This document shows positions 1,107 to 63,829 of a stretch of DNA of 64,000 bases, one piece after another. The notes beneath the pieces are model-generated. The model saw only the letters and a program-made list of their open reading frames with translations. It did no database searches and was not told the origin of the DNA. The translations under genes and the position numbers were made by a program. Position 1 is the stretch's first letter. The number at the start of each line of letters is the position of its first letter. This stretch comes from Patescibacteria group bacterium. Lineage in GTDB: Bacteria > Patescibacteriota > Patescibacteriia > Patescibacteriales > UBA12075. The stretch is taken from contig JAKJDO010000001.1 in the NCBI GenBank assembly GCA_022705905.1, forward strand, positions 28,692 to 92,691, in the 5' to 3' direction.

Positions 1107-1652
1107 TCAAGGCGCAGCCAAAATCTCAACTTTTAATACTTTTATGCCAAATATTTTAGCCTCTTCCCTGTCTTTAAACCAAATATCAATATAATCATTA
1201 TAACGCGGGTTCATTCTATCTCTAACCACAAACACTTTATCGCCAAAGACGTCCGGCATCTTTATTTTTGTCCCAAAAGGCAAAAAATTAGCTGCTACCG
1301 AATCTTCGATGCCGTGTTCACACAAATTAAAACCATTGGCCGTCCGACAAGGATCGCCATCAGTTTGCCAAACATCAGAGGAATAAGCTGTAACCTTAAA
1401 AAAACCGCTCCTAGCAATTAATAAATCACCGTTCTCTGGCAAAAAATTCAATATTAGCAGGTCGTCGTCAGCAACAATTTGTTCTTCGGCTAACAACGAC
1501 GCTTGACCATCTTCATTAATTTGGCTGGCTAAAACTGGGACGGGATAAAGAATGAACTCGAAAACAACTAAAAAAACCAAGGACAAAACTATTTTCTTCC
1601 ACGTTTTTTTTGATAAAAATATATTATTTTTTTGTCTGTCTGGGGACGACAT
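1107..1652 (-). CDS. Secreted 3D-domain protein (MltA/YuiC/YabE-like peptidoglycan lytic-transglycosylase fold) with an N-terminal signal/TM segment.
   Basis: Hydrophobic N-terminus. The C-terminal block VTAYSSDVWQTDGDP...VVRDRM...IDIWF carries the three spaced Asp residues typical of the 3D domain. Confidence 0.55.
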   Translation of the reverse strand: MSSPDRQKNNIFLSKKTWKKIVLSLVFLVVFEFILYPVPVLASQINEDGQASLLAEEQIVADDDLLILNFLPENGDLLIARSGFFKVTAYSSDVWQTDGDPCRTANGFNLCEHGIEDSVAANFLPFGTKIKMPDVFGDKVFVVRDRMNPRYNDYIDIWFKDREEAKIFGIKVLKVEILAAP

Positions 1653-1860
1653 ACTTTATATAAAACAGTAAAAATAACTAATATTGCAAACAAAAAACCC
1701 TATCTCCAATAATTTTCCTTGGATGAATAGGGATTCTCTTGCTTCTATTTATATCATATCATACCAGGCGATAAAAGTCAACGAAATAATAGACTTAATA
1801 GATAAAAAAGAAGTCTAAAAAATGAAAGATAGACTTCTTCTTGTATTTTAAATTTTATAA

Positions 1861-2391
1861 TTAAAAACAATTTGGATCATTCATGCACTGCTGCAGCCCA
1901 CTAGGGACTTCTTCAAAAGTAGTTTCTGTCCAAATATCTGAAAAACTCCAACTGCTCCACCATTCAGAAAAGGACCATCCGCCGCCCGATCCAGAGCTAG
2001 AACTAGTGTCAACTGCGCCAGAACCGAATGGTATGGCATTAAATACAAAATATGTTATGGAATAAGCGGCTACGATAATAACTAAGCCAATCACGGCTTT
2101 AGTTATTGTGTCTTTAGCCTTAGTTACTTTTTGTTCATCGCCGCTGGCCGTCATCCAATTGAAGCCGGCATAAATTATAAGAATAACAAAAATTATGCCC
2201 AATATGCTTAAAAACCCCTGGATAACAGCCGCCATAATTGACCCTACATTTTCTGTCGTGCTAAAACCGCTGCGGCTGACAAAGCGATCATATTGAGTGT
2301 CAGCTAAAACCGCATTAAATAAAAACAAGCTCAAAACAAAAAGAAAAATAAAAATTTTTAACTTAATTTTATTGTTTTTGATAGTAAGCAT
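1861..2391 (-). CDS. VirB2/TrbC-like (T4SS-type) pilin paralog 1. It has a signal peptide, a variable ectodomain, two TM helices and a Trp/Ser-rich Cys-containing C-terminal tail.
   Basis: Core LSILGIIFVILIIYAGFNWMTASGDEQKVTKAKDTITKAVIGLVIIVAAYSI is shared by all seven tandem genes. Confidence 0.6.
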   Translation of the reverse strand: MLTIKNNKIKLKIFIFLFVLSLFLFNAVLADTQYDRFVSRSGFSTTENVGSIMAAVIQGFLSILGIIFVILIIYAGFNWMTASGDEQKVTKAKDTITKAVIGLVIIVAAYSITYFVFNAIPFGSGAVDTSSSSGSGGGWSFSEWWSSWSFSDIWTETTFEEVPSGLQQCMNDPNCF

Positions 2392-2400
2392 AAAAAATTG

Positions 2401-2787
2401 TTAATTTTGTCTAGACATCATAATAACGCCAACCACCAATTGGCCAATGGCGTAAGCGCCGGCTGTAATTATCAGGCCGATTATGGCGCGCTGGATGGTG
2501 CTTTTAGCCTTGTCTACTTTAGAGTTATCTCCGGCCGCCACCATCCAATTATAACCGCCATACAAGATTAAAACTGTAAAAATTATGCCTAATAATGAAA
2601 ATAAAACTTTAACAATGTCGCCGGCCATTTCAGCGGCCGTATATTCCGTCGCGGTCTTATAACCGCTGCTTGACTGCACCTTTTCCAGCTTATTTAACGC
2701 GGCGCTTTGCGCAAACACAAAATAAGGCAATATTAAAATTGCCACCAGAAACAAAAGATAAAAACTATTTTTTATTTTTTTACGCAT
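2401..2787 (-). CDS. VirB2/TrbC-like pilin paralog 2.
   Basis: Signal peptide plus the conserved core LLGIIFTVLILYGGYNWMVAAGDNSKVDKAKSTIQRAIIGLIITAGAYAI. Confidence 0.6.
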   Translation of the reverse strand: MRKKIKNSFYLLFLVAILILPYFVFAQSAALNKLEKVQSSSGYKTATEYTAAEMAGDIVKVLFSLLGIIFTVLILYGGYNWMVAAGDNSKVDKAKSTIQRAIIGLIITAGAYAIGQLVVGVIMMSRQN

Positions 2788-2822
2788 GATTTTAACTAAA
2801 TAATTAATAGACGCTCACTTTT

Positions 2823-3254
2823 TTAAGAAGTTAAAGAGCGTTCATAGGGCGCCACTATATTCATAACTATAAAATAAGTAATGGCATAGGCGGCAACCAC
2901 GATAACCAGGCCGATAACCGCCTCAGTTATTAAATCCTTACCCTTGGCCACCTGCTGCTCCTTGCCCATGGCTGTCATCCATAAATAACCGCCGTAAACT
3001 ATTAAACAAATAAATATTATCCCCAAAAATGATAAAAATATATTTATTATTCTGGCAACAACAAATTCCGGTGTCGTCCCTGTCTGATAGCCGCTGGCTG
3101 CCCTGGTGTAGCCAAAAGGCGTTTCCAGACTGACGCTAAAAGCGTCTTTCAAATTAATGGCCTGCGCCGCCGAACCGAACAAAAAACATATAAAAACTAT
3201 AAAGATGATGTAGCTAAAACTTCTCTTCATAATTGCTAAAATCAATATGATCAA
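2823..3254 (-). CDS. VirB2/TrbC-like pilin paralog 3.
   Basis: Conserved core FLGIIFICLIVYGGYLWMTAMGKEQQVAKGKDLITEAVIGLVIVVAAYAI. Confidence 0.6.
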   Translation of the reverse strand: MIILILAIMKRSFSYIIFIVFICFLFGSAAQAINLKDAFSVSLETPFGYTRAASGYQTGTTPEFVVARIINIFLSFLGIIFICLIVYGGYLWMTAMGKEQQVAKGKDLITEAVIGLVIVVAAYAITYFIVMNIVAPYERSLTS

Positions 3255-3299
3255 AAAAAGTCACCGAAATTTTTAAAATTTTATGATTGATGGCCTGCT

Positions 3300-3770
3300 C
3301 TACTGGGAGGTCTGGGTGGTGACAGTAGAAGAATCAAAGGAAATAATGCCGGTATCAATAGCGCTAATTATAAAATAACTAATAGCGTAAGCGGCCATAA
3401 CTATTATCAGGCCGATTAAAGAATTAGTTAATATATCTTTTGCTTTTTGAACTTTTTGCTGATCGCCCTTGGCTGTCATCCAAATAAAGCCGGCATAAAC
3501 CATCAAAATAAGAAAAATCACTCCTAAAAAAGAAAGTAAGGTTTGAATAACACTGCCGGAAATTTGAATTAATTTGTTCTCTGCCTGGTCAAGCTGCAAA
3601 GAGTTGTCATACCCCGCTCCGCCGCCAACTTTTTTCAAGCCGTTATTAAACAGGGTGGCGGAATTATCGGCTGCAAAAGACACTGAGGCAATTTGACTCG
3701 TGACAAAAATGCAAAAGAATATAACGGCTATAAATTTTAATTTTATAAATAACCTTTTATTTTTATTCAT
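3300..3770 (-). CDS. VirB2/TrbC-like pilin paralog 4.
   Basis: Conserved core FLGVIFLILMVYAGFIWMTAKGDQQKVQKAKDILTNSLIGLIIVMAAYAI. Confidence 0.6.
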   Translation of the reverse strand: MNKNKRLFIKLKFIAVIFFCIFVTSQIASVSFAADNSATLFNNGLKKVGGGAGYDNSLQLDQAENKLIQISGSVIQTLLSFLGVIFLILMVYAGFIWMTAKGDQQKVQKAKDILTNSLIGLIIVMAAYAISYFIISAIDTGIISFDSSTVTTQTSQ

Positions 3771-3775
3771 GGTGA

Positions 3776-4168
3776 TTAGCTGGTTATAACACTGCCGACA
3801 TAAGCGGTAATAGCATAAGCGGCTATAACTATTATTAAGCCGACAGCTGCGGCTTCCATTATATCTTTAGCCGTTTGCACGTTTTGTTGATTGCCGCGAG
3901 CTAACATCCAGGTAAAGCCGCCATAAATCATTAAAATTAAAAACAAAACGCCGATAAAAGACAGGCCGACGCCTATCGCGTTACCTATGGTCGTTGAGAT
4001 ATCTTTTTCCGGCAAGGTGCCATAAGCTTTTTCTGAAGATTGAGTTAAGCCGCTAAGAGCGCTGTCAACTGCTTTGCCCAGCGCGCTGTCAGCAATGCCA
4101 TAGCAAACAAAAAAAGCCAAAAAAATGGCTAAAAATGCTATCGTCTTTTTATATAAACCATTGCCCAT
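3776..4168 (-). CDS. VirB2/TrbC-like pilin paralog 5.
   Basis: Conserved core FIGVLFLILMIYGGFTWMLARGNQQNVQTAKDIMEAAAVGLIIVIAAYAI. Confidence 0.6.
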   Translation of the reverse strand: MGNGLYKKTIAFLAIFLAFFVCYGIADSALGKAVDSALSGLTQSSEKAYGTLPEKDISTTIGNAIGVGLSFIGVLFLILMIYGGFTWMLARGNQQNVQTAKDIMEAAAVGLIIVIAAYAITAYVGSVITS

Positions 4169-4287
4169 AAATTTTATTGCCTTTTGACGAAATTACTTCC
4201 GCCGCTATTAACACGAATTTTTCTTGCTAATGGCGGCGGACCCCTGAAAACAGGGGCCGCTTTTTATCTGCAATAAATATTCTGCGC

Positions 4288-4680
4288 TTAAGGGGTCGGG
4301 TTGCCAACGATGTTGTAAGCGAAGCCAACAACGATCTGAACGATGGCGTAAGCAGCGATAATGATGACTAAACCGATAATACCGGCGATAATAGTCTTTT
4401 TAGCCGAACCAACTCTGTCTTCATTGCCGCCAGCAGTAAGCCAAAGGAAGCCTCCGTAGAGGATTACGATAACGGCGATAATGCCCAAGAAAGTCATCAA
4501 ATAAGTGACGATATTAACTGCGGCCTCTTTTGGATCGTTGACGCTACTTGGTAAACCGAAATCGGCATCATTTATACCCAAAGGGTCAGTCGCTAGGGCG
4601 GGCAAGGCAACTAAAAGAGCTGGCATAATCATCGCTAATAAAGCCACGGCTGCCAATGCATTTTTAAATGTTTTTTTCAT
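4288..4680 (-). CDS. VirB2/TrbC-like pilin paralog 6.
   Basis: Conserved core FLGIIAVIVILYGGFLWLTAGGNEDRVGSAKKTIIAGIIGLVIIIAAYAIV. It is the closest paralog of gene 7. Confidence 0.6.
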   Translation of the reverse strand: MKKTFKNALAAVALLAMIMPALLVALPALATDPLGINDADFGLPSSVNDPKEAAVNIVTYLMTFLGIIAVIVILYGGFLWLTAGGNEDRVGSAKKTIIAGIIGLVIIIAAYAIVQIVVGFAYNIVGNPTP

Positions 4681-4793
4681 AATTTTTGACCTTTTAAATT
4701 AGTTAATAAATTTGACCTTTTTTTATATATTTATTAAATTTTTGCTATTGATTATTAATATCTAGATATAAACAATGTGTTTGTTTTTTTATT

Positions 4794-5174
4794 TTAGGCG
4801 CCGCTAAGCACGTTCATAGTCGTACTCACGATTATTTGAACTATAGCATAGGCTGAAATAATTATCACGAGTCCGATTAATCCGGCAATAATTGTTTTTT
4901 TGGCATCAGCAATTTTATCTTCATTGCCGCCAGCCACCATCCATTTAAAACCGCCCAGTAAAACTACAACTACGGCGATAATGCCCAAGAAAGTCATCAA
5001 ATACTTAACGGTGTTAACTGCTGCCGCTCGGGGATCACTGACTGAATTAGGCAGGCCTAAACTGCCTGCTTCATTCAATCCTAGATCGGCTTGGGCTTGA
5101 ACAGCTACCGCTAAAGCAGGAAAAATTATTAAAGCTAATGCGAGAGCTAAAAATAAATTAATTTTTTTGATCAT
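4794..5174 (-). CDS. VirB2/TrbC-like pilin paralog 7.
   Basis: Conserved core FLGIIAVVVVLLGGFKWMVAGGNEDKIADAKKTIIAGLIGLVIIISAYAIV. A G-rich RBS (gggaagggggtgagtc) lies just before the ATG. Confidence 0.6.
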   Translation of the reverse strand: MIKKINLFLALALALIIFPALAVAVQAQADLGLNEAGSLGLPNSVSDPRAAAVNTVKYLMTFLGIIAVVVVLLGGFKWMVAGGNEDKIADAKKTIIAGLIGLVIIISAYAIVQIIVSTTMNVLSGA

Positions 5175-5460: not shown

Positions 5461-7101
5461 GTGAAAAAAAATACCGGCAACATAATAATCTGGTCTTTGT
5501 TTTATAGCTTTGTTTTTGTTTTCCTTATTTATAATTCTTTTAGCTATCTTGACCCGGATTTAGGCTGGCATCTGAAAGTAGGCCAGCAAATAGCGGCCGA
5601 ACGAGCCGTCCCGGGTCTGGAAAATTACAATTATACATTGTCAGGTAAAAGTTGGGTTGATCATGAATGGCTAGCGAACCTGATTATTTTTCTAATCTAT
5701 GACCAGTTCGGCTACCTTGTTTTATCCGCGTTGTTTGCCCTGTTAATAATTCTGATTTTAATAATTCTAAACAGACAAATAAAAAAAATATGCCGGCAAT
5801 CTACCGAAAATTCTGCTTGGCTAACAATAATTATAATAATTTTAGAAATCCTGGGTGTGATAGCCGTCGCGCCGCATATTGGCGTCAGGATACAAGAAGT
5901 AGGGCTATTGTTTCTATTGCTGCTTCTGTTGGTTATCCAAAAATTTGAATCTGCTAAAAACTGGAAAACACTGTTATGGCTGCTGCCAATTTTATATTTT
6001 TGGTCTTGTTTGCACGGCAGTTTTTTAATCAGTCTTTTTATTTTAGGTTTTTGGATTTTTATAAAAATTATTGAGCGGCTGATTGCCGCCCGCTTTGGCT
6101 GTCGCCGTTTTTATTTTTTGAACTTTGAAAATAAAACAACTTGGCTGGACATAAAAAATTTCGCCTGGCTGGCATCAGCAGCTATAGCTAGCACCTTTTT
6201 TACTCCCTATGGTTTTAAGCTATATTCCTTTTTAGCCGACTATACTGATAATTTCTATGCTGAACATATTGTTGAGTGGCTGCCGGTTTTTACTTTTCCC
6301 TTTTCTTACGCGCAAATGTTTTACCTGTCTACGGCTATAGCCGTTGTCTTGATTTATTGCCTTAACTTTCACTATTCTCGAAAAAAAAACATCGCCTTCA
6401 CTCCTTCAATAAACCTCTGGCAGCTAGGCCTCTTTTTTGTTTTTTTGTTTTTAGCTTTTAAGTCACGACGTCACTTCCCGCTTTTTTTTATTGTCTCTCT
6501 ACCCATTATAGTGCAAATAATTTTTAATGAATTTCAATCGGCCAAAATTAACTTCAATCTTTTTAGAGGCTTTTTAATTAAATTTTATTTGCTGTCAGCC
6601 ATACTGCTGGCGGCAGCTGGATTAATTTTAAAAACTAATTTTACCAACGAACCATTTTTAAATAAAAATTTTTGCCAAACCTACCCCTGCGCCGCCATTA
6701 ATTTTCTAAAAAATAATGGCCAATATTCCAACCTGCGCTTATTTAACGATTATAATTGGGGCGGTTTTATGATTTGGACCTGGCCGGGGAAAAAAATATT
6801 TACAGACGGTCGTCTGCCACAATACCCCTACAATAATCATACCCTCCTAGAGGAATACTATGCATTTTTTGACGAGAAAAAAACAGAGGAGCGACTAGAC
6901 CAACATAACATTGAGCTCGTCTTGCTAAAAATAGAAAAACCACGAAAAATAAAAAGGTGGGAGCAAATAGTCTTCGGAATCAAAGATAGAGAGACTAAAA
7001 ATAATTTATCTAATTATTTAAGTGGCGCTAAAACATGGCGCTTGGTTTACACGGATGATATTAGCCAAATTTATGTTAAAAATAACAACGCCAATCAATA
7101 G
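5461..7101 (+). CDS. Polytopic membrane protein with more than 10 predicted TM helices and a C-terminal soluble domain. This is probably a GT-C fold glycosyltransferase or an oligosaccharyl/mannosyl-transferase-like protein.
   Basis: The hydrophobicity pattern is visible in the translation, and the gene sits in a glycosylation gene cluster. A promoter-like TTGTCA-18-TAAAAT lies at about 5296-5325. Confidence 0.4.
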   Translation: MKKNTGNIIIWSLFYSFVFVFLIYNSFSYLDPDLGWHLKVGQQIAAERAVPGLENYNYTLSGKSWVDHEWLANLIIFLIYDQFGYLVLSALFALLIILILIILNRQIKKICRQSTENSAWLTIIIIILEILGVIAVAPHIGVRIQEVGLLFLLLLLLVIQKFESAKNWKTLLWLLPILYFWSCLHGSFLISLFILGFWIFIKIIERLIAARFGCRRFYFLNFENKTTWLDIKNFAWLASAAIASTFFTPYGFKLYSFLADYTDNFYAEHIVEWLPVFTFPFSYAQMFYLSTAIAVVLIYCLNFHYSRKKNIAFTPSINLWQLGLFFVFLFLAFKSRRHFPLFFIVSLPIIVQIIFNEFQSAKINFNLFRGFLIKFYLLSAILLAAAGLILKTNFTNEPFLNKNFCQTYPCAAINFLKNNGQYSNLRLFNDYNWGGFMIWTWPGKKIFTDGRLPQYPYNNHTLLEEYYAFFDEKKTEERLDQHNIELVLLKIEKPRKIKRWEQIVFGIKDRETKNNLSNYLSGAKTWRLVYTDDISQIYVKNNNANQ

Positions 7102-8506
7102 CAACAACAAAATTTTGTCTTCCTTGAATATTTACCGGCTATTCTTCTGGATTTTCCTGTCTCTTTTAACCGTCTTACTCCACTCCAAACATTATATTGA
7201 TATTGACGAAGGACATGTTTTAGACGGAGCTTGGAATTTACTTAACGGTAAAAAACTATATTTTGATTTTTTTGAGTTTACCCCTCCTGGCGCTTATTAT
7301 TTAGTGCTTTGGTTATGGCAAATATTCGGCGTTAATTATTTAGTAGCTAAAATCGCGTCTTTAGCCGCGCTACTTCTAGCCGCGCTTGGTATTTATAAAA
7401 TTTGGTCGGCTGTAAGCCGCTATTTTAACATCAGCCGAGATTCTGTCTCTATATATCTAAGCATTTTTATTTTTATAATTTCCACCACCCACCTACCGAC
7501 TATCAGTTACCATACCTTCAATCTCGCTTTTACTGTCTGGGCGGTTTATTTTTTTATAAAAGCGCTCTCGATCCAGCCAAATAAAAATATTATTTTTTTT
7601 TCCGGATTGCTAACTGGCGCAGCTGCTCTATTTATGCAAAACAAGGGCGGTGCTCTGTTTTTAACCTTATTCTTATTTACCCTTTTTTTATTAATTAAAG
7701 AAAGAAAAAAAATATGGCTGCAATCATTGCTAATTTTATCAGTTGCGACGACACTGCCGATTATAACCCTGGCGGCTTTCTGGCCAGTTGGTTTGCTTTT
7801 TAAAAATTTAATCGCATTCCCGATATTTAACTACACCAAAGTGGCAATGGTTCCTTTTTATCTACTCTTTTTCTTTATTATTGTCTGGACGGGTGTTATT
7901 TGGCTGCTTAGAAAAAAAACCGCCACCGCCATACAATTTCTTTTTTTCTGGCAATTTATTTTGTTGTTTTCTATTTATTCTTTGGCCGACCATGCGCATC
8001 TATTGCTAGCTATATTCCCACTACTGGCGCTACTACCCGCTGTCCTTAATGAAATCAAAACGTCAATTTACAAAAATTATTTTTTTATCCTGACGGTGGT
8101 AACTATTTTTATCATTGTCTATCCCGCTCTTGTTTTTCTTAACAATTTTAAAAATTTGCCAACTGCAAAAGATTATAAATTTTTAGATTATATTGCCGCT
8201 AACTGCGACAAAACAGAATATTTATACGCCGGGCCGTTTATGTGCGGAATTTATTTTGAAACTCGAAAAATAAACCCAACGCCTTACGGCTGGCTTATTA
8301 CCAACCACCACACCGACGACCAATTTACCGACGCTAAAGAAAAATTAGAAATAAACACTCCAGCTTGCGCAATTTTAAATTACCAATTAGTCAAAAAATA
8401 TGGCTATAACATTGACAATCCGGTAGACAATTTTATTAAAGAGAACTATTATTTAGCTTATACCAGCAATGATGTAATGGTTTATAAAAAAAACCAACCA
8501 CAATAA
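7073..8506 (+). CDS. ArnT/PMT-family (GT83/GT39-like) GT-C membrane glycosyltransferase.
   Basis: A DE-type first-loop motif (DIDEGHVLDGAWNLL..PPGAYY) is followed by multiple TM helices. The ORF track starts it at 7022, overlapping the upstream gene. Internal Met codons at 7055 and 7073 are more likely starts, which implies translational coupling. Confidence 0.5.
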   Translation: MLKITTPINSNNKILSSLNIYRLFFWIFLSLLTVLLHSKHYIDIDEGHVLDGAWNLLNGKKLYFDFFEFTPPGAYYLVLWLWQIFGVNYLVAKIASLAALLLAALGIYKIWSAVSRYFNISRDSVSIYLSIFIFIISTTHLPTISYHTFNLAFTVWAVYFFIKALSIQPNKNIIFFSGLLTGAAALFMQNKGGALFLTLFLFTLFLLIKERKKIWLQSLLILSVATTLPIITLAAFWPVGLLFKNLIAFPIFNYTKVAMVPFYLLFFFIIVWTGVIWLLRKKTATAIQFLFFWQFILLFSIYSLADHAHLLLAIFPLLALLPAVLNEIKTSIYKNYFFILTVVTIFIIVYPALVFLNNFKNLPTAKDYKFLDYIAANCDKTEYLYAGPFMCGIYFETRKINPTPYGWLITNHHTDDQFTDAKEKLEINTPACAILNYQLVKKYGYNIDNPVDNFIKENYYLAYTSNDVMVYKKNQPQ

Positions 8507-8508
8507 AT

Positions 8509-9273
8509 ATGCTAAACGGAAAAAAAATCATAGTCGTTATGCCTGCTTACAATGCGGCCAAAACTCTTAAAAAAACTTACGAACAAATACCGCGAGATAT
8601 TGTTGACGATATCATTTTAGTTGACGATCGAAGCTCTGATGAAACTGTCAAGCAAGCCGAAAAATTGAACATCAAAACCTTTATACACGAAAAAAATAAA
8701 GGCTATGGCGGCAATCAAAAAACTTGCTATCAAGAGGCCCTTAAACTGGGCGCTGATATTGTAGTTATGCTACACCCCGATTATCAATACGACCCGCGCT
8801 TAATTACAGCTTTAAGTTCAATGATAGCTTCGGGTGTTTATGACGTGGCTCTCGGCTCAAGAATATTGGGAGGCGAGTCGGTTAAAGGCGGGATGCCCAG
8901 ATATAAATATTATCTAAATAGAATCCTGACTTTCATCCAAAATTTAGCCACCGGTAAAAAATTATCAGAATATCATACTGGCTACCGCGCCTTTTCCAGA
9001 AAAGTCCTGACTTCAATCCCTCTAAACAATAATTCTGATGATTTTGTGTTTGACAATCAGATGCTGATGCAAATTATATTTTTTAATTTTAAAATCGGTG
9101 AAATAAGCTGCCCGACAAAATACGAACCGGAATCGTCATCTATAAATTTTAAACGCAGTTGTGAATACGGCATCGGGGTTATTTTTACTATAATACAATT
9201 TTTTATAGCTAAATCAAAAATAACGACTATAAACATTTTCAGCGAAGAGAAGGCTAAAATTAATTTAAACTAA
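8509..9273 (+). CDS. GT2 polyprenyl-phosphate sugar synthase (Dpm1/ArnC/GtrB-like).
   Basis: N-terminal IVVMPAYNAAKTL...VDDRSSDET...KGYGGNQ is the GT2 Rossmann signature. Confidence 0.7.
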   Translation: MLNGKKIIVVMPAYNAAKTLKKTYEQIPRDIVDDIILVDDRSSDETVKQAEKLNIKTFIHEKNKGYGGNQKTCYQEALKLGADIVVMLHPDYQYDPRLITALSSMIASGVYDVALGSRILGGESVKGGMPRYKYYLNRILTFIQNLATGKKLSEYHTGYRAFSRKVLTSIPLNNNSDDFVFDNQMLMQIIFFNFKIGEISCPTKYEPESSSINFKRSCEYGIGVIFTIIQFFIAKSKITTINIFSEEKAKINLN

Positions 9274-10020
9274 ATGAAAGTCGATTTCTGCCTGCCGATT
9301 TATAATGAAGAAAAAATTTTAGAAAAAAATGTTTTAAAATTACTTAACTATTGCTCGGCGCAACAATTTAATTTTGATTGGAAAATTACTATCGTATCTA
9401 ACGGCTCTTCAGACAGCTCTTCAACTATTGGCGAAAAATTAAAAGCGGAAAATTCTGATAAAATTAATTTTATCAATATAAAAACCCCCGGCAGGGGTCA
9501 GGCCCTTAAAACGTATTGGCTAAAAAGTCCGGCTGATATAGTTGTTTACATGGATATTGATTTGGCCGTATCCTTGGACGAAATTCCGAGGCTAATCCAG
9601 CCTATTATTAATAAAACTTTTGATTTGCTTGTCGGCTCGCGCTTAATGCCGGAGTCAAAAATTAAAAGATCTTTTATTAGGGAGCTTAGCTCGCAAAGTT
9701 ACAATTTTTTATCCCGCGTTATTTTAAAACACAATTTTTCCGATATGCAATGCGGTTTTAAAGCTGTCAAAGCTGAAGTTTTTAAAAAAATCGCGCCGTA
9801 TATAAAAGACACTAAGTGGTTTTTTGATACCGAACTAATAATTTTTACAAAAATATTCGGTTATAAAATCAAAGAAATTCCGGTAAACTGGTCGGAAAAC
9901 AGATATGATGAGAGGGAAAGCAAGGTAAATATGTTCAAAGACAGTTTTAAATTCTTATATAATTTAATCGCGCTAAAAATAAGGCTGGCGAATATCAAAA
10001 AGAAAAATCTTGCCAATTAG
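9274..10020 (+). CDS. Second GT2-family glycosyltransferase.
   Basis: DFCLPIYNEEKIL...YMDIDLAV (DxD-type) motifs. The gene is adjacent to and in the same orientation as the first GT2. Confidence 0.65.
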   Translation: MKVDFCLPIYNEEKILEKNVLKLLNYCSAQQFNFDWKITIVSNGSSDSSSTIGEKLKAENSDKINFINIKTPGRGQALKTYWLKSPADIVVYMDIDLAVSLDEIPRLIQPIINKTFDLLVGSRLMPESKIKRSFIRELSSQSYNFLSRVILKHNFSDMQCGFKAVKAEVFKKIAPYIKDTKWFFDTELIIFTKIFGYKIKEIPVNWSENRYDERESKVNMFKDSFKFLYNLIALKIRLANIKKKNLAN

Positions 10021-22376: not shown

Positions 22377-23222
22377 TTATTTATGCTTTTTTTTATATAA
22401 ATCTAAGGTATTTTTAAACAACATAGCAATCGTCATTGGACCCACTCCACCAGGCACGGGGGTAATGAAGCTAGCCTTGTTTTTAACGTCTTCAAAATCA
22501 ACATCGCCGCAGACCTTATCACCGTCCCTAGTTATGCCAATATCAATTATGACAGCGTCTTTCTTAATAATGTCGGAACTTACAAGCTTTGCTTTGCCAA
22601 CGGCTGAAATTAGAAGGTCGGCCTTAGCAGTTTTCTCCACTAAATTGATATCGCTGGACTTGGCTATTTGGACTCTACCACCCATGCACTCCAAGACTTT
22701 TTTAACACTGCGCCCAAAAATTTCTGAATTAATAATTGCGCAAATATTTTTACCTCGCATATCATAATCAATGCTTTGTAAAATTTCTAAAATCACGGCA
22801 ATCAGCGGCGGAACTACCTCTTTGTTGTTGCAACTGGCAAATAATTTTTTAACATTTTCCGGATGAAAACGATCAACGTCTTTAACAGGGTCAATGGCTC
22901 TAATTATACCGTCTGTATCAAATCCTTCTGGTAGGGGCAGCTGAATCAAAACAGCATCAACACTATCGTCTTTATTAAGAAATTCTATGGTGTCGTAAAT
23001 TTCTCGTTCAGAAATATTTTCTGGACATTTATAAATATGGGTATCTATGCCTACCTTTTTTGCCTCCTTTTCTTTCAAATTAACATACAAAACAGAGTCT
23101 TCTCTGTCGCCAATCAAAATAATAGCCAAACTGGGTCGTTCGCCCTTCAAATCATAAATTTCTTTCGCTACCTCGTCTTTTATTTTTTCGGCTAAAACCT
23201 GACCATTTATTATTTGGGCCAT
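22377..23222 (-). CDS. folD: Bifunctional methylene-THF dehydrogenase/cyclohydrolase.
   Basis: Rossmann motif PGGVGPMT and the expected N-terminal substrate domain. Confidence 0.85.
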   Translation of the reverse strand: MAQIINGQVLAEKIKDEVAKEIYDLKGERPSLAIILIGDREDSVLYVNLKEKEAKKVGIDTHIYKCPENISEREIYDTIEFLNKDDSVDAVLIQLPLPEGFDTDGIIRAIDPVKDVDRFHPENVKKLFASCNNKEVVPPLIAVILEILQSIDYDMRGKNICAIINSEIFGRSVKKVLECMGGRVQIAKSSDINLVEKTAKADLLISAVGKAKLVSSDIIKKDAVIIDIGITRDGDKVCGDVDFEDVKNKASFITPVPGGVGPMTIAMLFKNTLDLYKKKHK

Positions 23223-23881
23223 AAAGCAATAAAATACTTAATAAAAATTAGGGCAATCAAATGCAAAGGATAAAACCAATAAAAAAAATGTTTTGGCAAT
23301 TTAATTTTAATCAGCTGTTGCTGAAAATATATTGCTGGTATAAATCCTAAAAATGAAAAAAGTAATAAAATTTGATCACTAACTTTATACGCCAATAAAG
23401 AAAGCGCTGCTAGACAAACTACCAAAAGTAATTTTTGCGATCTAAAAAAATAAAAAAGACTTGTCATTATAATCCCATAAAGTCCGTAATCGCATTTTAT
23501 AAAATAAGCAAAAATAATAATTAGCAAAGCCAGCCAATACTTCCTTTTATCACAAGCGAAGATGAACAAGAGAGATAGCAAAAGAGAAAATATAATATTT
23601 AATTCATTCTTGCCAAAAAGTATCATAAAAGGAATTTGTGATATAGCACCAAAAAATAATAATCGATAAAAGTACATCTTTAGATTGGAAGTGTGTCGAT
23701 AGCCGTCGGCTATACCAGCCGCAAAAATAGGAAAAGCGATCCTTCCAATAATACGTAAGGGCATTATTTGCGGAAAAAAAACCAAGCCAACGTGGTCAAC
23801 AATCATTGACAACGCTGCCGCCAATTTCAAAAAATCATTTTTATCATTAATCAAGGATAATCCACTGCTATTTATCACCAT
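23210..23881 (-). CDS. TraX-family polytopic membrane protein. F-pilin acetylase TraX belongs to this family.
   Basis: N-terminal LKLAAALSMIVDHVG matches the TraX signature (K-I-A-x-x-x-M-x-x-DH-x-G). There are 6-7 TM helices. Confidence 0.5.
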   Translation of the reverse strand: MVINSSGLSLINDKNDFLKLAAALSMIVDHVGLVFFPQIMPLRIIGRIAFPIFAAGIADGYRHTSNLKMYFYRLLFFGAISQIPFMILFGKNELNIIFSLLLSLLFIFACDKRKYWLALLIIIFAYFIKCDYGLYGIIMTSLFYFFRSQKLLLVVCLAALSLLAYKVSDQILLLFSFLGFIPAIYFQQQLIKIKLPKHFFYWFYPLHLIALIFIKYFIALWPK

Positions 23882-63217: not shown

Positions 63218-63829
63218 TTATTTTGTTAACTGAAAACTTTTAAATATCTTACTAACATCTTGAAGCGCCACTGATCCTTGTTCTGTTGAATCTTGAACGA
63301 TTACTTTACCTAAAAATATATATTTGTCGTTACTTCCAATTTCAGTATTGCACGGATACATAGCAATTCCAGTTTCCTTCTGTTCCTTTTCACATTCGCT
63401 TACATCTTTTTCATATTCTTCTTTTAATTTTGAATCTATTATATCGATTGCAAAAAGACATTCTTTGTGGGCTGTTTCAAGACAAAATTTAATTCTTTTG
63501 CGGTTAGGGTCATTTAACTCAACATCTAGCATACCTTGATTGTAATCAATTTTTGTTTCAATGAAATAGTTTTTCCAATTATTTGTCAGAGTTATTTGGA
63601 ATCCATATTCCTGATTTGAATATATAGTATTGGCACTGTTTGTAATAGAATTATTATCGTTTTGCTGAATGGGCGTATTGGCAATTTGTTGAGGTGGTTG
63701 TTGCGTTGCTTGTGGAGTGACTACTGCTGGCAGCTGGTTATCTTGCTTTATCGTTGCAAAATATATAGTTGTGCCAAATAAGACAATGCCAACAGCTATT
63801 AAAATTGTAATGATTGTTTTTTGATTCAT
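63218..63829 (-). CDS. Hypothetical secreted or membrane-anchored protein (203 aa) with a Gln/Pro-rich linker and a Cys-containing C-terminal domain.
   Basis: N-terminal TM or signal segment. No family recognised. Confidence 0.4.
   Translation of the reverse strand: MNQKTIITILIAVGIVLFGTTIYFATIKQDNQLPAVVTPQATQQPPQQIANTPIQQNDNNSITNSANTIYSNQEYGFQITLTNNWKNYFIETKIDYNQGMLDVELNDPNRKRIKFCLETAHKECLFAIDIIDSKLKEEYEKDVSECEKEQKETGIAMYPCNTEIGSNDKYIFLGKVIVQDSTEQGSVALQDVSKIFKSFQLTK

Follow-up and report, generated by a model that had tools for sequence, protein, structure and literature searches.

A chromosomal array of seven VirB2-like pilin genes in a bacterium of the Patescibacteria group

Arrays of VirB2-like pilin genes were described across the phylum Patescibacteria between 2023 and 2025. 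In a survey of 3,035 genomes of this group with the profiles PF18895 and PF04956 (Quinonero-Coronel et al. 2025, PMC12102498), cited here and below for the parts of the article drawn on, VirB4 of the type IV secretion systems (T4SSs) was present in 2,417 of the 3,035 assemblies (80%), and VirB2-like pilins were found in 1,948 VirB4-positive assemblies, in 1,135 of which they are near virB4. An array was defined as two or more divergent VirB2-like genes, in tandem or one gene apart, and 441 arrays of 2-11 genes were found in 383 assemblies, with a mean identity of 25% and a maximum of 54%; Microgenomatia and Saccharimonadia are named in figure legend S9 as the richest in arrays near virB4. The present analysis concerns a stretch of 64,000 nucleotides (the window) of contig JAKJDO010000001.1 (assembly GCA_022705905.1, positions 28,692 to 92,691, forward strand), which contains seven consecutive minus-strand genes, g1 to g7 in order of transcription, at 1861-5174. 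On balance, we consider it likely that this array is a chromosomal VirB2-like pilin set feeding a patescibacterial MPF-FATA-like T4SS and building a heteropolymeric structure on the cell surface for contact with a host.

The six-gene array of Southlakia epibionticum ML1 is inside the T4SS locus and is essential (Wang et al. 2023, via PMC12857230), and in Saccharimonadia the array lies within the T4SS locus and both are essential (PMC12857230); nevertheless, the role of the patescibacterial T4SS has been called 'completely unknown' (PMC11665869). The array of the window shares with those of S. epibionticum and Nanosynbacter lyticus TM7x ('Sec secreted array') the PF18895/PF04956 families, the tandem same-strand genes, products that are structurally alike and divergent in sequence, the chromosomal location, the lack of a relaxase and a monoderm host phylum. 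They differ in location, since the Saccharimonadia array is in a T4SS locus whereas any T4SS gene would be 50 kb or more away from the array described here. Furthermore, ABY1-type arrays with GT-C-like, GT2 and 3D-like neighbours, as well as the conserved positional orthology found here, are not mentioned in the parts of the PMC12102498 text drawn on. The locus is a further example of the published array class. The initial annotation, made from the sequence of the window, had offered as one option an unrecognised surface-filament system; this novelty does not stand, because arrays of this kind are in the literature (PMC12102498, PMC12857230) and NCBI already lists g2 as 'TrbC/VIRB2 family protein'.

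Eight minus-strand open reading frames (ORFs) are found in the region 1107-5174, the seven pilin genes and a downstream gene encoding a 3D-like protein (Table 1). The initial annotation numbered the pilin genes by coordinate, its paralog 1 being g7 and its paralogs 6 and 7 being g2 and g1; its description of seven consecutive same-strand genes, each with a signal peptide, a variable ectodomain, a double transmembrane core and a variable tail, proved accurate. All seven genes are full-length, with their own start codon and signal peptide, and encode proteins of 126-176 amino acid residues. In public gene calls g5 starts at the ATG at 3230, which gives 135 residues and is more likely than the TTG start of Table 1. 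Just upstream of the ATG of g1 there is a purine-rich sequence, GGGGGTGA. Hydropathy analysis shows an N-terminal signal segment and two more hydrophobic segments in each protein. The seven pilins share one topology, in which a Sec-type signal peptide is followed by a variable N-terminal segment outside the cell, a conserved membrane hairpin (helix-loop-helix) and, again outside, a variable tail. The loop between the core helices is short, basic and conserved in all seven, G-x-(D/N/K)-x-x-K/R-V-x-x-A/G-K, and the exposed segments are Ser-, Thr- and Gly-rich. Seven contiguous and highly divergent VirB2-like genes in a Patescibacteria chromosome are an array as defined in the published survey.

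All seven proteins passed the gathering threshold of the T4SS_pilin profile PF18895 (26.6 bits), with scores of 30.6 to 46.2 bits, and this domain is precomputed on all 120 listed homologues of g1. The TrbC/VirB2 profile PF04956 (threshold 27.9 bits) was passed only by g2 and g7; g1 and g4 scored 20.6 and 14.9 bits, respectively, and g3, g5 and g6 showed no match at E≤1. The genes had been taken initially for VirB2/TrbC-like pilin paralogues, and these hidden Markov models (HMMs) bear this out, PF18895 for seven of seven and PF04956 for two. The protein encoded by g2 is identical to the NCBI entry 'TrbC/VIRB2 family protein' of Parcubacteria group bacterium ADurb.Bin316. At E≤0.001, a profile of the seven paralogues matched 66,670 representatives of clusters made at 50% identity, and because of these matches and the published arrays we regard the family and the array architecture as established. 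Both the pilins and the downstream protein have their closest relatives in Candidatus Falkowbacteria, Magasanikbacteria, Uhrbacteria and other Patescibacteria; the host is an ABY1/Falkowbacteria-like bacterium, identical or nearly so to ADurb.Bin316, which is recurrent in metagenomes of the anaerobic-digester type. Many database proteins show 2-16 separate matches to the pilin profile in one ORF of 230-1775 residues; they represent either true fusions of tandem hairpins or neighbouring genes called as one, as can occur where a lineage has a reassigned stop codon.

The best NCBIfam match of all seven proteins is NF045849, the Mbov_0395 pilin-like conjugal-transfer protein of mycoplasma integrated conjugative elements (ICEs), with a curated cut-off of 40 bits; g7 is above it, g4 is the next (39.3 bits) and the remaining five score 19-28 bits. 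The match to Mbov_0395/MMCAP2_0565 covers the two-helix core. In contrast to the array, the mycoplasma proteins are ICE-borne, single-copy and found in wall-less Mollicutes, and six of the seven genes here are under the cut-off. NF045849 is the best match for every pilin, and monoderm (MPF-FATA) T4SSs are stated to be without VirB2 homologues (PMC12102498, parts drawn on); this hints that a VirB2-like protein may be ancestral to the monoderm MPF-FATA class rather than co-opted.

The AlphaFold2 model of g1, with an input alignment of the seven paralogues only, shows a signal helix (residues 2-30) followed, after an unstructured stretch, by a long helical hairpin (48-80 and 85-124), with a predicted local distance difference test (pLDDT) of 70.6 overall and 71-89 in the core. 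The modelled hairpin is compatible with VirB2, and beyond this compatibility the structure gives neither support nor refutation. Agrobacterium VirB2 and the F-/P-type TraA/TrbC pilins share with the array proteins the small size, a long signal peptide, two helices, a basic loop and both ends outside. However, the host here is monoderm, the paralogues number seven and not one, a partner ATPase was not found in the neighbourhood, there is no evidence of an outer-membrane core, VirB5, cyclisation or acetylation, and no structural match was obtained.

To compare the paralogues across genomes, 56 related loci (designated with the prefix L) were used, four retrieved via the downstream protein and 52 via the pilin with three paralogues as query; the retrieval patterns, WMTA.G and Q.V.K.KD, bias this sample to ABY1-like relatives. 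Pilins in these loci were called with an HMM built from the seven paralogues, and as a rule the arrays contain 4-15 genes. Mean pairwise identity among g1-g7 reaches 0.52 in the core, against 0.22 in the part that precedes it and 0.28 in the part that follows, and the pairwise comparison of the seven contiguous genes gave identities of 18-58%. Among positional orthologues, identities are 0.55-0.63 in the core, 0.23-0.34 in the ectodomain and 0.08-0.32 in the tails. Variation in ectodomain and tail thus exceeds that of the core, as had been anticipated; the common core, with 14 invariant alignment columns, is conserved, although its initial description as near-invariant was overstated. The closest pair is g1/g2, with 62% amino acid and 63% nucleotide identity, and their synonymous sites are saturated (proportion of synonymous differences, pS, 0.67; synonymous substitutions per site, dS, about 1.7). 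This duplication is therefore old: the initial annotation was right in taking these two genes as the closest pair, but a recent duplication is ruled out by the saturated dS. The ratio of nonsynonymous to synonymous substitutions in the core of g1 versus g2 is about 0.10, and the pilin core is under strong purifying selection.

The order of the pilin types is conserved between genomes. Reciprocal best hits of g1-g7 are colinear with the other arrays (Spearman 0.83, 137 pairs), with strict colinearity in 22 of the 30 loci having three or more reciprocal-best-hit pairs, and this positional orthology spans about 35 related genomes. By the same method g7 corresponds to the last gene of related arrays, g6 to the penultimate and g1/g2 to the first genes, and g3 has positional orthologues in 17 arrays. 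The copy number of the first type (g1/g2) varies between lineages from one to four, and this type has been duplicated independently in different lineages. As the type order is conserved and the first type can be amplified, the array looks like an ancient, ordered set of distinct types, a fixed multi-subunit set and not a switching cassette; the lineage-by-lineage amplification makes the g1 type a candidate for the major subunit.

These data also bear on antigenic or phase variation, in which a single copy would be expressed at a time or the copies would recombine, as in pilE/pilS or in the VirB2 of Anaplasma and Bartonella. Highly variable ectodomains and tails around a conserved core are what such a system would show, and host-range or immune-evasion analogies have been offered for VirB2 arrays (PMC12102498, parts drawn on). 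However, every one of the seven genes is complete, DNA repeats between array copies are only 61-70% identical over 170 nucleotides, with no long near-identical repeats, and the locus shows 0-3 single nucleotide polymorphisms over 12 kb and no rearrangement in six assemblies from several projects (JGI, ENA, NCBI, Logan). Given, in addition, that the types diverged anciently and keep their positions across genomes, and that even the closest pair is saturated in dS, we consider this explanation very improbable, and the pilin-variation locus proposed initially is not upheld. The VirB2 paralogues of Anaplasma phagocytophilum and Bartonella share with the array the tandem amplification, the divergence and a proposed diversity in surface or host interaction (via PMC12102498, parts drawn on), but they are within or beside virB operons of diderm intracellular pathogens, whereas the array here is ordered and ancient and shows no ongoing variation.

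The last pilin, g7, ends in a species-specific tail, first Gly/Ser- and then Trp/Ser-rich, closed by a C-x5-C motif (QQCMNDPNCF; Cys169 and Cys175), which agrees with the Trp/Ser-rich, Cys-containing tail noted initially. Its orthologues are the last genes of their arrays and have shorter Gly/Ser tails. The last-position pilin of L032 likewise closes a low-complexity tail with a C...DPNC loop (QPCGEEGDPNCPPPGL), and from their sequences the loops of g7 and this orthologue may form a small disulfide-bonded terminal knob. Only as an analogy, type IV pilus pilin operons also have ordered small subunits with a conserved hydrophobic core, variable exposed parts and modular grafted versions; they differ in having an unrelated fold and signal and other machinery, and the class III signal peptide/N-methylation motif is not found in the array pilins.

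The pilin genes form an operon, ended after g7 by a terminator-like hairpin with a U-run. The g2-g3 spacer folds into two stable hairpins without a clear U-run, and the g1-g2 spacer is comparatively unstructured (z 0.22). Judged from its predicted folding, the g2-g3 spacer may be a partial terminator, an attenuator or an mRNA processing or stabilising element that parts g1-g2 from g3-g7 and sets their ratio. Upstream of g1 a TTGACA is found at 5294-5289, but no good -10 hexamer at 16-18 nucleotides. The downstream 3D-like gene has a promoter-like site with an extended TG, recognised by its match to 10 of 12 consensus positions, and its own terminator. Between this site and the start codon, the 5' leader (1688-1744, minus strand) contains a hairpin followed by a U-run (-20.6 kcal/mol, z -2.7), which could be an attenuator of the putative cell-wall hydrolase gene and has no match in Rfam.

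The protein of this downstream gene had been described as a 3D-domain protein. It showed no match to PF06725 (3D) at E≤1 and no Pfam match of any kind, one of its 43 homologues matched PF06725 (E=0.13), and PDB sequence searches with the protein alone or with a 43-sequence profile gave nothing significant. By contrast, its AlphaFold2 model (pLDDT 77.7 overall, >90 in the barrel) shows a predicted double-psi beta-barrel of MltA/YuiC-like fold, and homologues are named '3D domain-containing protein' by JGI and NCBI; the description is thus kept for the predicted fold and the homologue names, not for the Pfam domain. Residues T88, Y90, D117, D145 and D156 are invariant across the 43 homologues. 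The spacing of 11 residues between D145 and D156 is that of D151 and D162 of YuiC, in which D162 is a catalytic residue (PMC4499186), and the position that aligns with the first Asp may be N122. The predicted protein shares with MltA and YuiC (Sps) the T-x-Y motif, the Asp with YuiC-like spacing and an extracytoplasmic membrane anchoring. We infer from the model and these residues a putative active, membrane-anchored lytic transglycosylase.

The initial annotation saw in this gene an echo of the VirB1-VirB2 pairing. VirB1 has an SLT/lysozyme-like fold; no SLT/lysozyme-like domain was found in the downstream protein, whose predicted fold is the beta-barrel. Both adjoin a pilin gene or operon, but the gene here has a promoter-like site of its own after the terminator hairpin, and a 3D-like homologue is downstream of the array in only 14 of 41 loci (the window and the loci retrieved through the pilin itself). 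The echo is therefore an analogy only. Within the Falkowbacteria-like subclade the association between array and 3D-like gene is real, and it could come from inherited synteny as much as from function.

On the other side of the array, a divergent plus-strand cluster encodes two polytopic membrane proteins without Pfam match and two GT2 glycosyltransferases. The polytopic neighbours of arrays share a conserved acidic motif in their first loop. Their families are linked to one another by hhalign (86-98% probability), two of 29 members match PMT_2 (4e-7) and a DUF2079 protein adjoins two arrays, and from these links we infer that the polytopic neighbours of about 500-550 residues are GT-C-type glycosyltransferases; PDB sequence searches with two of the profiles gave nothing significant. 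GT-C-like genes are found within 4 kb of 11 of the 16 arrays with full flanks, and related clusters recur beside arrays in differing genomic contexts (flanks in L010-L062). This suggests that the GT-C/GT2 genes are an extracytoplasmic glycosylation module tied to the pilins.

In the reading that we favour, a VirB2-like pilin set for a T4SS, the seven pilins would be exported by Sec and cleaved by signal peptidase, and their hairpins would pool in the membrane with both ends outside. An MPF-FATA-like T4SS, with VirB4 and VirB6 encoded elsewhere, would extract the hairpins and assemble them as a heteropolymer, a surface filament or channel extension for contact with the host cell, with g1 and g2 as major subunits and g3-g7 as low-abundance specialised ones. 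The variable ends would face outward and set surface or host specificity. The separately transcribed MltA/YuiC-fold enzyme, functionally analogous to VirB1, may make way for the structure through the peptidoglycan, and the divergent GT-C-like/GT2 cluster may glycosylate the Ser/Thr-rich exposed segments. A location of the T4SS machinery elsewhere in the genome is plausible because VirB4 is marked in all seven ABY1 rows sampled from Table S1 of the survey, three of them Falkowbacteria (PMC12102498, parts drawn on).

Several results weigh against this reading. No VirB2 filament of Patescibacteria is reported in the literature reviewed (PMC11665869, PMC12857230). The domain scan of the ORFs of the window found no VirB4, VirB6, VirB3, VirD4 or relaxase domain, in agreement with the initial statement on VirB4, VirB6 and VirD4, and none of these was found within about 8 kb past its low end or 9.8 kb past its high end (flanks of 10 kb beyond g7 and beyond the gene 63218-63829). 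None of about 45 related arrays inspected adjoins a VirB4-like gene, and for this reason the T4SS link rests on homology and on other classes. The 56 related loci were screened through ORFs of at least 560 residues, the Walker A motif and Pfam, and the VirB4 candidates were identified as FtsK, IF-2, Mfd, SMC-like, PNPase, GyrA, H+-PPase, SBP_bac_5, RNase J, PBP1 and PPDK. Foldseek of the g1 model against the PDB gave no match at E≤0.001, the best being ATP synthase subunit c at E=1, a helical hairpin being too simple a shape to discriminate in a fold search; likewise, the seven-pilin profile found no solved pilin among the PDB sequences. The 3D-like gene is a separate transcription unit, and many relatives have an opposite-strand gene between the array and it. 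Finally, in seven loci an N-terminal PF18895 module (signal peptide and hairpin) is fused to proteins of 592-3185 residues. Big_5 Ig-like repeats are present in all four fusions scanned with Pfam, one of which also has TIG, and the fusion genes are in housekeeping contexts, beside hisS, yqeY and the genes for an S21-like protein and signal peptidase I, without T4SS genes in the vicinity. Such giant Ig-repeat fusions, which could be called 'modular VirB2-like pilins', could hardly serve as a major pilus subunit.

Part of this evidence agrees with a T4SS-independent surface display, in which the PF18895 hairpin is a Sec-inserted anchor or a self-assembling coat subunit that needs no VirB4, presents variable and possibly glycosylated ends or anchors large adhesins, and has as true partners the GT-C-like/GT2 proteins and the MltA-like enzyme. 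The absence of VirB4-like genes beside the ABY1-like arrays inspected and the giant fusions beside HisRS, S21-like, YqeY and signal peptidase I genes speak for it, as do the Ser/Thr/Gly-rich exposed segments and recurrent neighbours that are envelope genes (GT-C-like, GT2, DUF2079, PBP1, SBP_bac_1, monogalactosyldiacylglycerol synthase). So does a conserved solitary pilin: an eighth pilin gene, paired with a glycoside-hydrolase-like gene with weak Cellulase/GH42/GH10 matches, is found outside the window, about 8 kb from its low end (L001, 18822-20307), adjoins Wzx-type flippase and GT1 genes, and is kept as a pair in the relatives L010, L011, L012, L013, L035 and L043. On the other hand, the family is homologous to VirB2/TrbC and to the mycoplasma ICE conjugal-transfer protein, the Saccharimonadia array is inside a T4SS locus with both essential (PMC12857230), and the survey reports pilins near virB4 in 1,135 of 1,948 assemblies and VirB4 generally in ABY1 genomes (PMC12102498, parts drawn on). 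Furthermore, a conserved order of distinct types suits a multi-subunit assembly, the GT-C assignment is indirect and glycosyltransferase genes are common in these genomes. We consider a T4SS-independent display unlikely, though it is the main rival. Its extended form, in which ABY1 arrays are uncoupled from the T4SS and form an autonomous Sec-fed surface system of glycosylated hairpin subunits, with wall passage by the MltA-fold enzyme and hairpins that also anchor giant Ig-repeat adhesins, seems quite unlikely.

The window is ordinary chromosome, with infB, rbfA, clpP, rny, recQ, folD, glyA, polA, rnj, tig, nusA, dnaN and yidC, dnaA at 58.4-59.8 kb, and ten tRNA and tmRNA genes; truB, lspA, tsaE and rplS complete the housekeeping context, and the GC content is without anomaly. 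This bears on a further explanation, that the array is what remains of an integrated conjugative element after loss of the rest of its transfer genes. The similarity to the mycoplasma ICE pilin-like conjugal-transfer protein (NF045849) is in its favour, but the housekeeping context (infB, truB, lspA, tsaE, rplS), the absence of integrase and relaxase domains in the scanned ORFs of the window, the GC content without shift, the syntenic block conserved in many species of the class and the purifying selection on the pilin core argue against it, and we find it scarcely credible. Both cassette variation and an ICE remnant are thus poorly supported.

A TraX-family gene at 23210-23881, reported initially in relation to the array, does match PF05857 (129.9 bits). 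However, it sits between glyA and folD, 18 kb from the array, and overlaps folD by 13 bp, and no TraX homologue was found in the 56 related loci; the glyA-traX-folD operon and the lack of a homologue near related arrays speak against it as array partner, so that the domain assignment was kept and the connection was not. The array is about 53 kb from dnaA in the window. In L016, L023, L033, L050 and L058, it is a few kb from dnaN and a probable dnaA, with a PBP1 gene between, which agrees with the published clustering of T4SS genes near the origin (PMC12102498, parts drawn on).

Two other elements of the window were observed. The minus-strand gene 63218-63829 encodes a 203-residue protein without Pfam match, and an identical copy is found at 10001-10612 of L009, on a 1.06-Mb contig (GCA_040772285.1), in a different context near phage-type integrase and DUF559 genes; this gene may be mobile or multi-copy. 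Between tRNA-Cys (934-1006) and a dksA/traR-type zinc-finger gene starting at 191, the minus strand contains a non-coding element of about 250 nucleotides (296-547). At least nine related genomes have it at the corresponding place with 72-74% DNA identity, as against only about 50% identity for their proteins. RNAalifold predicted a long-range helix, CCCUGAGAA/UUCUUAGGG, with compensatory changes, and a segment, GGGGCUCAG, able to base-pair with the 3' half of a GC-rich terminator, an arrangement that points to a possible terminator/antiterminator. An Rfam search of 1-1900 at E≤1 gave only tRNA-Cys and chance-level small RNA (sRNA) matches, and the element, without Rfam match at this threshold, is a candidate for a new riboswitch-like leader or sRNA.

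Table 1. Coordinates of the pilin array, its neighbours and PF18895 fusions in related loci (positions in the window unless a locus is given; aa, amino acid residues; MFE, minimum free energy)
Feature	Position	Strand	Characteristics
g1, pilin	4794-5174	-	126 aa, promoter-proximal; PF18895 39.0 bits
g2, pilin	4288-4680	-	130 aa; PF18895 39.0 bits, PF04956 30.3 bits
g3, pilin	3776-4168	-	130 aa; PF18895 32.1 bits
g4, pilin	3300-3770	-	156 aa, long ectodomain, Ser/Thr-rich tail; PF18895 41.4 bits, NF045849 39.3 bits
g5, pilin	2823-3254	-	143 aa from TTG start; PF18895 31.9 bits
g6, pilin	2401-2787	-	128 aa; PF18895 30.6 bits
g7, pilin, last of the array	1861-2391	-	176 aa; PF18895 46.2 bits, PF04956 29.3 bits, NF045849 42.9 bits
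Structured g2-g3 spacer	4169-4287	-	MFE -42.1 kcal/mol, z -5.5, 0 of 200 shuffles as stable
Terminator-like hairpin and U-run	1799-1842	-	13-bp stem, -13.8 kcal/mol, z -3.9, 0 of 200 shuffles as stable, followed by UUUUUU
Promoter-like site of the 3D-like gene	1753-1781	-	TTGACT-17-TATGAT
Putative lytic transglycosylase (3D-like)	1107-1652	-	181 aa; predicted transmembrane helix 15-35, disordered linker, double-psi beta-barrel 79-178
GT-C-like/GT2 cluster	5461-10020	+	Divergent from the array; two polytopic membrane proteins of about 500-550 aa, two GT2 (Pfam)
PF18895 fusion	L047, 9959-11935		
PF18895 fusion	L049, 8063-19402		
PF18895 fusion	L055, 6702-15307		
PF18895 fusion	L059, 7510-9879		
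PF18895 fusion	L060, 8164-17077		
PF18895 fusion	L061, 8075-16558		
PF18895 fusion	L065, 9854-16876		

Patescibacteria are a large share of uncultured bacterial diversity. Reviews regard what their T4SS and pilin arrays do as unknown, though both are essential in the one tractable species (PMC11665869, PMC12857230). This locus alone does not open the question, as the organism has not been cultured and arrays of this type are already published; the fixed type order, the lack of a VirB4 neighbour, the presence of GT-C-like/GT2 and MltA-fold genes nearby and the giant modular fusions are new details and leave the category unchanged. The comparative results do sharpen the hypotheses for tractable relatives: the array is a set of subunits in fixed order and not a variation cassette, arrays of the ABY1 class accompany glycosyltransferase and cell-wall genes and not VirB4, and the hairpin module is also present in giant adhesin-like fusions. 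Furthermore, the NF045849 match bears on whether VirB2-like pilins are ancestral to the monoderm (MPF-FATA) system or were co-opted later.

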